DNA of 64,000 bases from Escherichia coli. Lineage in GTDB: Bacteria; Pseudomonadota; Gammaproteobacteria; Enterobacterales; Enterobacteriaceae. This document shows positions 32,821 to 35,320 of this stretch, one piece after another. Under the pieces are notes generated by a model, which was not told where the DNA came from, did not search any database, and saw only the letters and a program-made list of their open reading frames with translations. The DNA is taken from assembly GCF_003334305.1 (NCBI RefSeq), contig NZ_QOWS01000011.1. The stretch is one strand, 5' to 3'. Position numbers and translations under genes: made by a program. Every line of letters begins with the position of its first letter. The stretch's first letter is position 1.

Positions 32821-35320
32821 TCACACCGAACGCGATTCAGGAGGAACTGTTTGGTAAATAGCACCACCGGATCTTGGGGACGCTGTGATTATTACAGTAT
32901 TGCTATCACCGTCATTTTTGAATGTCACTTTACCAGTAGCATCAACGCCTACCCAGGAGGCCGAGCTTGAAAACGAATAATCAGCCGCCGTTTTTCCTGG
33001 TGCAAAGTTGTCATTATTCAACTGATAATACGCCCCGGTAAATCCCTGCGAAGGGAATGAAGCTGTCGGTAGGTTTGCACCATTCACTGACACTGTACCG
33101 GTCATTGGTCTGGTTTCCGCGCTAATGAATTCTATCGTGGTACTCAGGCCCGCCTGATGAACACCATTCAATACGGGGATCAGCGTTGCGATACCCTCTC
33201 CGTCTCCTGTAACAGTAGCTTTGTAATCACCGTTGATATTTTGACTGTAATCAATTGCGCTAATTTTCATATAGGGCACGTTTGTACCTGATTGCACAAA
33301 TTCCATCCCTTCAGAAACTTTGATCGGATTGCCTGATATATCGTGCAGAACAAGATGTAGCTCAGCACTATCGGTAAAGTCCCCTTTCAGTGATGACTGG
33401 TTGTTCTTAAGGATGGACTGCGAGGCGTCTGCTGGGACTGCCACTAGCGATATATCTACTGTTTGCATTCCACCTGCGCTTGTGACTGTGCTTACAGTGA
33501 CGCTCCCCGTTATCGCTCCTTTCACGCTTGTTGTCGCGATTCCGTTTTGATCGGTCACTGCTGTTAATGACGTTAATGTGGTGGAGCCGCTTTTTAAGGC
33601 GAAGTACACAGTGAGACCTTCGATCAGGTTACCACTGCCATCCTCAACCGTTGCCTTTAAGGTACTTAAATCACTGTTGGTGGCGGCGATAGTCGACGGA
33701 TCAGCGATAAAGCTAGCAACATGTGCGGTGCTTGGGTTGCCAGTAACCTTCACGGTTGTCTGTGTCTGTATTGTGACGCCGTTATGGAACGATGCAGTCA
33801 CCGTATATGTACCGACTTTATTGCTGGTCAGAACGACTGGAGCCTGACCTGAAGAGTTGGTTCTCACTTTTCCGCCACTTAACGTCGCACCTTCTAGCGT
33901 TACGCTAAAGTTGATGACCTGACCCTCCACTGGAGTGCCATTTGCAGAGGTTAGCGTTGCCGTCAGAGTAGCGCCTTTAGGAGCATTGACACCGATAAGC
34001 GGACTGGACGTGAGTGTCAGTTTTTCATCAATAGCCTCCAGTTGTTTCTCAAGTGAAGCTCCATTCGCTAGGGATGCTTTTACAGTATACGAGCCGTTTC
34101 TTTCAGGCGTCATGGTGACCTCGGCTACTCCCTGCGTATTAGTAGAGACCGTATTCTGGCTGATGATCATTTGCGAGGATGGCGCTGCACTGAATGTCGC
34201 GGGTTGATGCGTCACCGGGTTGCCAAACTGGTCGTTAACGTGAGCTTTAACTGCTATGTCTTGTGCGACCATGACCTGACCTTCAGGTATCTCCTGACTG
34301 GTAATCGTCGCAGAATTAACATCTACCTTGGCATTCAGTAATCGCGAGATGACTTCAGTAGGTTTATCTGCCAGAGAGGCTGAAACTGTTTTTAGTCCGA
34401 CCTCGGTGCTTGTCACAAGAATTTCAGCGAAAACCTGATCATCCGTTTCAACGCTGGTGCTGCTTAGCGTGACGGAGGTTCCACGGAAATTAACTTTTAT
34501 ACCTTCTACTGGGTTGCCGTTTCCATCAGTCACTGTTGCCTGTAGCCTGGTCATTCCAATGTTATTGGCGATGAAATTGTCCTCGGTAACGTTAAGATTA
34601 ACCTGCGCAGTGAGCGTATCCGCAGTAAAGTTCACCACCAACTGCTCACTCTTACCGCCAACCATCGATGCTGTCACGGTATGAGCGCCTGCTTTTGTAC
34701 CTTTCAGCGTGACTTTCGCTTTGCCATCGGCATCAGTAACCGCTTTGTCGCCATCGCTCAGCGTGAAGTTCGCCTTCACATCTTCCGGTAGAGTAAATGT
34801 TACCTCAGTGTTGGCTATCGCATTGCCCTCTGTATCAGCGACGGTGCTGTTAGTGTCGTGAGATCGTTATTGTCGGCAATCACCGGATCCTTCGAGGCTG
34901 CCAGCGTGATTTCAGCATTCGTGACGTTCGGCACATAGTTCACTGTTTGTTGCATCGAATCGCCATTTTCGAGGGTTGCCGTCACGGGAGTTCTTCAGGC
35001 TGAAATCTTCATCCACGCCCAGCGTGATTCTTGCGGTACCGAAGCGGCTTAACCAGTCTGTCATTACCCCTGAAGCCTGAGAAGAGGCCCATCCACGTGC
35101 TATGTTTGCCGCTTGCTCGCTGTTCATATCTTCGGCGAGCAGAGATCCAATTAGCTGTGAAGTACTGGCTATCTGTTGCTCAAGGTTGCCACTGCTGTTA
35201 CCCGGCGGCGGGGTTAAATTTTTTTCACTAACTTGTGCCTGGACATCCAGTTCATCACCCGGGCGGACATTACGAACAAACGTACGAAACTGGTTGAGTT
35301 TGCGTAACAGGGGGGTATCT
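32821..35320 (-). pseudogene. yeeJ: yeeJ remnant (inverse autotransporter adhesin, intimin/invasin family): LysM-proximal segment plus Big-domain repeats, lacking signal peptide, beta-barrel and C-terminal domain
   Basis: Two ORFs (34912-35718 and 32821-34779) separated by a frame break; LRKLNQFRTF...EQQIASTSQLIGSLLAEDMNSEQAANIARGWASSQASG matches recalled YeeJ N-terminal region; 652-aa ORF is Big-domain repeats; full YeeJ is ~2350 aa. Confidence 0.7.

Follow-up and report, generated by a model that had tools for sequence, protein, structure and literature searches.

Inverse autotransporters have a 12-stranded β-barrel, and a periplasmic LysM domain is present in YeeJ, intimin, IatC, and IatD. 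YeeJ of Escherichia coli K-12 MG1655 (b1978) is a type Ve adhesin of 2339 to 2340 amino acids. Its gene adjoins asnT; truncated yeeJ has been reported in many strains, and CFT073 has been scored as yeeJ-negative (Martinez-Gil et al. 2017, PMC5595812). For the common E. coli high-pathogenicity island (HPI, the yersiniabactin island), Schubert et al. (2009, PMC2606025) described "a unique deletion" at the border next to fyuA, as well as "a distinct mutation pattern"; according to these authors, the border deletion takes out the direct repeat and blocks excision. Full islands of the ICEEc1 (ECOR31)/ICEKp type, represented here by that of strain K71-77, go on past this point with alpA/xis, DUF2857, traR, a type IV secretion system, mobC, and cargo genes; in K71-77, this series (starting with alpA) follows an intact gene for a 308-amino-acid (aa) protein, and the island adjoins cbl, not asnT.

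Here, we analyzed a stretch of E. coli DNA of 64,000 nt (RefSeq assembly GCF_003334305.1, contig NZ_QOWS01000011.1; hereafter the window), in which a reading made from the letters alone (the sequence-only reading) had pointed to a degraded yeeJ gene. Our analysis leaves little doubt that the locus is a non-functional yeeJ pseudogene remnant at the fyuA-side border of the common, immobilized E. coli HPI.

Results

A yeeJ remnant lies at the expected position, against the fyuA end of the HPI

With K-12 MG1655 yeeJ (7020 nt) as the reference, blastn placed the yeeJ-derived DNA at window positions 32864 to 35308 on the minus strand, in three collinear blocks (Table 1) with a nucleotide identity of 92 to 95%. 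The sequence-only reading had described yeeJ as reduced to a remnant of ~2.5 kb at positions 32821 to 35320, and both the reduction and, essentially, the interval were borne out. About 813 of the 2339 yeeJ codons were retained. The remnant is located ~1 kb from fyuA, with amn, shiA, and yeeL on its left and fyuA and ybtE on its right, and the remaining yersiniabactin genes run from ybtE to the end of the window. Since the gene order in K-12 is asnT, yeeJ, yeeL, shiA, amn, with yeeJ directly following asnT, the tRNA gene that serves as integration site of the island, the remnant is found where yeeJ would be expected. Leftwards from position 32844, the window matched K-12 DNA beginning 111 nt beyond the yeeJ stop codon and extending into yeeL, with 96% identity over this flank. 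The collinear homology at a conserved site beside yeeL-shiA-amn identifies the orthologous yeeJ locus, i.e., the same position between the asnT side and yeeL-shiA-amn that intact yeeJ has in K-12; compared to K-12 YeeJ, however, only ~35% of the codons are left, the frame is broken twice, and an island gene has been joined to the 5′ end.

Table 1. Coordinates of the yeeJ remnant, its junctions, and its neighbors in the window
Feature	Position in window	Strand	Details
amn	28454-29971	-	
shiA	30010-31326	-	
yeeL-like family-9 glycosyltransferase gene	31641-32693	+	Intact
Fortuitous TGA ending the 652-aa ORF	32821..32823	-	DNA intergenic in K-12
Two ORFs of the remnant	32821-34779 and 34912-35718	-	ORF listing
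J3	32845..32863	-	~19 nt of unmatched filler in place of 453 bp of K-12
yeeJ passenger remnant	32864..34984	-	K-12 aa 1416-2225 minus 104 aa; blastn, Pfam
yeeJ block 3	34540-32864	-	K-12 yeeJ nt 5001-6677, 92.3% identity; blastn
Big_1 repeat crossover point	34511..34540	-	312 nt (104 aa) lost in frame relative to K-12
yeeJ block 2	34984-34511	-	K-12 yeeJ nt 4244-4718, 95.4% identity; blastn
1-nt deletion	34844..34846 (~34845)	-	K-12 yeeJ nt 4383, ACAGCAAC to ACAGCAC; global alignment; shifts Ig-domain frame
Out-of-frame 24-codon tail and stop of chimeric ORF	34912..34983	-	Big-domain DNA read out of frame; translation
Chimeric 249-aa ORF	34912-35661	-	RefSeq start; extended to GTG at 35718 in ORF listing
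J2, yeeJ nt 550 joined to nt 4244	34984..34986	-	One unmatched G between; out of frame; alignment
yeeJ block 1	35308-34986	-	K-12 yeeJ nt 219-550, 92.5% identity; blastn
yeeJ nt 219-550 (aa 74-183)	34986..35308	-	C-terminal LysM half, periplasmic linker, first ~59 residues of IAT_beta model
J1, island DNA joined to yeeJ nt 219	35307..35309	-	In frame, 1 nt (G) of microhomology; three-way island/window/K-12 alignment
Island-derived 5′ part of chimera	35309..35661	-	Ribosome-binding site, ATG, codons 1-117 of 308-aa gene
AT-rich island spacer downstream of fyuA	35662..36311	-	Island DNA, not yeeJ; fyuA hairpin terminator at ~36290
fyuA	36312-38333	-	Stop at 36312
ybtE	38464-40041	-	

Five lesions separate the remnant from intact yeeJ

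The junctions were mapped to the base by comparison with K-12, with a long yeeJ allele, and with a full conjugative island. Five lesions were found relative to intact yeeJ, i.e., a 5′ loss, an internal deletion, a frameshift, the loss of a repeat, and a 3′ deletion. At the first of these, J1, codon 117 of the 308-aa island gene runs in frame into yeeJ codon 74. The first 218 nt of yeeJ are thereby lost, along with its promoter, start codon, signal peptide, and the first half of the LysM domain, and the right attachment site of the island is also gone. The segment of yeeJ that follows (aa 74 to 183) was identical to K-12 in 99 of 110 alignment columns (~90% amino acid identity) and carries an in-frame deletion of 9 nt (three codons) at ~35273; these 9 nt are present in strain DETEC-E1005.

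At J2, ~3.7 kb of yeeJ (aa 184 to 1414) has been deleted, and with it the β-barrel and the first Ig-like domains; relative to the long yeeJ allele of AST20, the deletion amounts to 5.2 kb. The 1-nt deletion downstream of J2 was common to all five (5/5) island-type haplotypes compared. It falls inside the interval between 34779 and 34912 to which the sequence-only reading had assigned a frame break, and a second, larger break is found at the 34985 junction. Further into the passenger region, blastn and alignment showed that both adjacent Big_1 repeat copies of K-12 match the 30-nt common stretch at the crossover point. Finally, J3 has cost yeeJ its terminal 343 nt, in which the last 114 codons, with the Intimin_C lectin domain, and the stop codon are located, and a further 110 nt downstream are missing as well. 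A premature end at 32821 had also been claimed, and this is indeed where the reading frame terminates, at a stop codon in former intergenic DNA past the 3′ deletion.

Length variants of yeeJ are known (MG1655/UMN026), and we considered whether the 104-aa gap and the 3′ end represent normal length variation. This was rejected, as the junctions are deletions relative to both K-12 and the 2870-aa AST20 allele. Allelic length variation was also ruled out by the island-negative genomes, in which every full-length match sampled aligned in three pieces across the junctions.

The remnant has lost the signal peptide, the barrel, and the cap

In K-12 YeeJ, Pfam identified IAT_beta at aa 125 to 400 (model positions 2 to 279), a series of Big_1 and Invasin_D3 domains, one Invasin_D4 domain, and a weak match to Intimin_C (PF07979) at aa 2245 to 2335 (E = 0.0023). 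In the window, the 249-aa ORF matched only positions 3 to 64 of the 279 positions of IAT_beta (PF11924; E = 8.7e-07), and no IAT_beta match was obtained in the 652-aa ORF. The claim that the β-barrel translocator is absent was thus upheld. Residues 1 to 73 of K-12 YeeJ, including MGIKLRRLTAGICLITQLAFPMAAAAQG, have no counterpart, and the ORF instead begins with the island-derived MSKKYQPLLITHYMSTW, with no hydrophobic leader. With LysM delimited as in PMC5595812 (49 aa), J1, at residue 74, lies inside this domain and leaves 23 residues of its C-terminal half, compared to 26 in K-12. The passenger has fared better, as the 652-aa ORF contains tandem Ig-like domains (one partial and four complete Big_1, Invasin_D3, and Invasin_D4), and a repaired passenger translation of 706 aa had 646 residues identical to K-12, or ~91% when the 104-aa gap is excluded. 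Of the LysM-proximal segment and run of Big-domain repeats that had been proposed to remain, the Big_1 run therefore stands, while only half of LysM itself is left. The homology ends at K-12 aa 2225 to 2226, before Intimin_C, and the C-type lectin cap is lost. Nor does one reading frame connect barrel and passenger sequences, as both the out-of-frame junction at 34985 and the 1-nt deletion at ~34845 intervene. Without a signal peptide, barrel, or cap, and with its two parts in different frames, the adhesin can no longer be displayed on the surface, in agreement with what the sequence-only reading had proposed.

It could be argued that the two ORFs together make up a complete, shorter, and functional YeeJ paralogue with a β-barrel of its own, a case that had been named as the one that would overturn the earlier reading. 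Short inverse autotransporters do exist in E. coli, for example, IatA with 465 aa (PMC6714894), and the 249-aa ORF is listed in RefSeq under the name "inverse autotransporter beta domain-containing protein". However, Pfam found no barrel in either ORF beyond the stub described above, the N terminus is island-derived and has no signal peptide, and the DNA follows yeeJ itself collinearly, at the locus of this gene and across mapped deletion junctions. We consider the probability of such a paralogue to be practically nil.

Both ORFs are by-products of the deletions

The 249-aa ORF is a chimera of 117 island-derived residues, YeeJ residues 74 to 183 minus three codons, and 24 out-of-frame residues. 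Its fusion partner is the K71-77 gene encoding WP_000039782.1, and the alignment with this gene holds up to J1 for both protein and DNA. The 308-aa island protein is also found in Klebsiella, Yersinia, and Salmonella; neither the full protein nor its 117-aa N-terminal part had any match in Pfam, NCBIfam, or PHROG. For the second ORF, the GTG at 34779 is merely the first start codon past the upstream stop, and the Ig homology starts at 34984 in another frame. RefSeq annotates this ORF as a pseudogene (Ig-like domain-containing protein; frameshifted; incomplete; missing N-terminus and C-terminus).

No RNA family was matched in an Rfam scan of positions 31000 to 37000. When positions 32600 to 36400 were scanned for consensus promoters and terminators, the number of sites did not exceed that in shuffled sequence, and the chimeric ORF had none upstream, a result that fits expression as well as its absence. 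Both ORFs are by-products, one an island-yeeJ chimera that lacks a signal peptide and the other an Ig-like stretch that lacks a genuine start, and probably neither of them is expressed.

The border corresponds to the published deletion of the common HPI

The spacer downstream of fyuA had no match in K-12, while fyuA, the spacer, and the first 117 codons of the chimera had 98.8 to 98.9% identity to their counterparts in K71-77, which carries a full conjugative island. A search with up to 2 mismatches for the 17-bp attachment repeat, CCAGTCAGAGGAGCCAA (as given in PMC2801613), found no copy between fyuA and yeeL; in the window, it occurs only at three other asn tRNA genes (22634, 25043, and 26928). 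The right direct repeat has thus been lost on the fyuA side. The conjugation/excision module is also absent; at 35308, the 308-aa island gene gives way to yeeJ, and all the genes with which the full islands continue are deleted. The carriers agree in how the deletion reaches into the neighboring backbone, as seen from the J1 counts and from five diverged haplotypes (see below), which agrees with PMC2606025.

Compared to the right-border HPI deletion described in that study, the window has the same ~1 kb of island DNA after fyuA, followed by truncated backbone and no 17-bp repeat, and nothing material differs. The left end of the island (intB) and asnT lie beyond window position 64000, and it is from synteny, with yeeJ beside asnT in K-12, that we infer integration at asnT. 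The HPI right-border origin of the 5′ truncation was not part of the sequence-only reading, and the same holds for the in-frame island-yeeJ chimera and the spread of the haplotype in the population.

The haplotype is widespread and continues to decay

Among the 5426 complete E. coli genomes surveyed, 2037 had at least 80% of window positions 32600 to 36400 in one piece, and 2229 had the 1-kb right end of the island. A 121-mer across J1 was found in 2001 genomes, the J2 junction 121-mer in 2057, and the J3 junction 141-mer in 2074 (each out of 5426). The full haplotype is a fixed feature of ~37% of the complete E. coli genomes. Over the region, identity was 100% for FDAARGOS_497 and 99.3% for Nissle 1917; an assembly artefact was ruled out by the more than 2000 complete genomes with the same junctions, these two included.

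Five diverged island-type haplotypes were compared, and all five lesions were found in each, in addition to extra independent damage. Nonsense mutations were present at 33312 in Nissle 1917 and at 33519 in strain 2313, LSN03 had an additional 1-nt deletion at 32973, and in BEN5202 an IS3 insertion was accompanied by the loss of 33848 to 35168. Such continuing decay in other strains fits a pseudogene. A crude count over the five haplotypes gave 15 synonymous, 23 nonsynonymous, 2 nonsense, and 1 frameshift changes in the Ig-like region, a small sample that fits relaxed constraint.

The chimeric ORF itself could be thought of as a new gene that is expressed and has acquired its own function. The in-frame fusion has kept the ribosome-binding site and ATG of the island gene, from which a 249-aa cytoplasmic product may be translated, the exact protein was found on at least 1000 contigs, and the ORF is unbroken in the five diverged haplotypes, where the downstream Ig region has acquired two nonsense mutations and one frameshift. 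However, the ORF has a length of 750 nt against 2.1 kb for the Ig region, and with ~1 disabling hit expected, the observed zero is not significant. The substitutions in the five haplotypes (8 nonsynonymous and 4 synonymous) gave no sign of constraint, and no promoter was found upstream in the consensus scan. Furthermore, half a LysM domain and a barrel stub without a signal peptide offer no plausible fold or location, and hitch-hiking with the island accounts for the wide spread (PMC2606025). We therefore regard a functional new gene as highly improbable. Equally little probability was given to the wider notion that the chimera is transcribed from the signals of the island gene and has a functional product, or that the Ig remnant serves as a recombination donor for other adhesin genes with Big_1 repeats.

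Probable stepwise decay of yeeJ at the island border

The pseudogene remnant probably arose as follows. An ancestral conjugative island of the ICEEc1/ICEKp type would have integrated at asnT. A deletion then took out all DNA between fyuA and yeeJ that starts with codon 118 of the gene following fyuA and ends with yeeJ nt 218. The deleted stretch would have contained the excision/conjugation module, which has a length of ~35 kb in full islands, in addition to the 17-bp right attachment repeat and the promoter and start of yeeJ; this border deletion both immobilized the island and decapitated yeeJ. The rest of the gene was destroyed by four more lesions, i.e., the 3.7-kb out-of-frame deletion, the 1-nt frameshift, the Big_1 loss by unequal crossover, and the 3′ deletion, in which the lectin cap and the stop codon were lost. 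While the junctions and the domain losses were observed directly, the order of events is tentative.

Alternatively, all lesions could stem from one catastrophic event when the island integrated or its border was lost. The junctions co-occur in ~2000 genomes, and the wording of Schubert et al., "a unique deletion" and "a distinct mutation pattern" (PMC2606025), could be read in this way. Co-occurrence is, however, expected in any case, as the flank spread with the island by recombination. The five separate lesions are also of differing kinds (blunt junctions, a homologous repeat crossover, and the loss of a single base), and the junction counts are unequal (2074, 2057, and 2001). In addition, J3 was found in the island-negative genome 377323_2f, which has no island DNA and a different 5′ deletion that begins 60 nt before the start codon and reaches yeeJ nt 5787. 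Since this genome combines J3 with another 5′ deletion, the 3′ deletion is not strictly part of the island border event. A single event thus appears unlikely, and stepwise decay seems the better account of the remnant.

Discussion

The remnant, as a scar of the published HPI border deletion, is already known. To the published deletion, our analysis adds the junctions at base level, and what was described as a "distinct mutation pattern" of the backbone corresponds to four further lesions inside yeeJ. The 5′ junction is the physical scar of the deletion that took out the excision and conjugation genes of the island along with its right attachment site, and it is through this border deletion that yersiniabactin production became a fixed chromosomal trait of extraintestinal pathogenic E. 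coli.

The haplotype can also serve as a lineage marker, given that the common-type island has a single origin and that the flank spread with the island by recombination. For annotation, carriers of the haplotype should be scored as yeeJ-negative, and the RefSeq name given to the 249-aa chimera is misleading and has been widely propagated.

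The 3' deletion of yeeJ in an island-negative genome

The deletion at J3, the 3' junction at which the last 114 codons and the stop codon of yeeJ are lost, was also found in the island-negative E. coli 377323_2f, with 97.5% identity to the window. In this genome, the 5' deletion is unlike that of the window: its breakpoint in the asnT-yeeJ intergenic region lies 60 nt upstream of the start codon and is joined to yeeJ nt 5787. The occurrence of J3 together with a different 5' deletion suggests that the 3' lesion arose independently of the island border deletion, predates it, or was moved by recombination. 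A yeeL-like gene, convergent with yeeJ, was intact in the window and in every island-type genome looked at, whereas K-12 yeeL is an annotated pseudogene.

Features in the window and in compared genomes
Feature	Location	Strand	Remark
AT-rich spacer 3' of fyuA, site of length difference	window 36015-36027; full island (L004) 9717-9925		
Three further tRNA-Asn genes	window 22635-22710; 25044-25119; 26868-26943		17-bp attachment sequences intact
Cargo end of the full yersiniabactin island, E. coli K71-77	L006 18162-35699		adjoins cbl
yeeJ remnant with J3, island-negative E. coli 377323_2f	NZ_CP039404.1, L007 9255-10454		
yeeL-like family-9 glycosyltransferase (heptosyltransferase family)	window 31641-32693	+	intact, 350 aa

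Annotation and length of the chimeric ORF

The identical 249-aa chimeric protein (window 34912-35661, minus strand) was present on at least 1000 contigs, and the protein cluster that holds it has 2881 member sequences. It is entered in databases as "inverse autotransporter beta domain-containing protein" or "putative invasin", among other names, while only ~59 of its residues belong to the named domain; the naming is a misleading annotation that has been propagated. Nine nucleotides (three codons, GFD in K-12) are missing from the LysM remnant at window ~35273, as in most island haplotypes. DETEC-E1005 retains them, and its chimera is therefore 252 aa. The loss is an in-frame deletion inside a pseudogene and a later event.

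Island structure and other tRNA-Asn sites

Compared with the full conjugative island, as carried by K71-77 and similar genomes (H64 and H66-H68), the common island has an AT-rich spacer on the fyuA side that is ~220 nt shorter. In the alignment of the window with the full island, the flanks of this length difference overlap by 13 nt.

The three further tRNA-Asn sites of the window, with their attachment sequences intact, appear unoccupied. Since the second-to-third spacing is 1824 nt, as in K-12, neither pks nor another island seems to reside at these sites in this strain.

By annotation, the cargo end of the K71-77 island carries the anti-phage systems CBASS (a frameshifted dncV, cap3, an E2/UBC protein, and a phospholipase) and Hachiman (HamA and a helicase), along with an ISEc33 element and ArdC.
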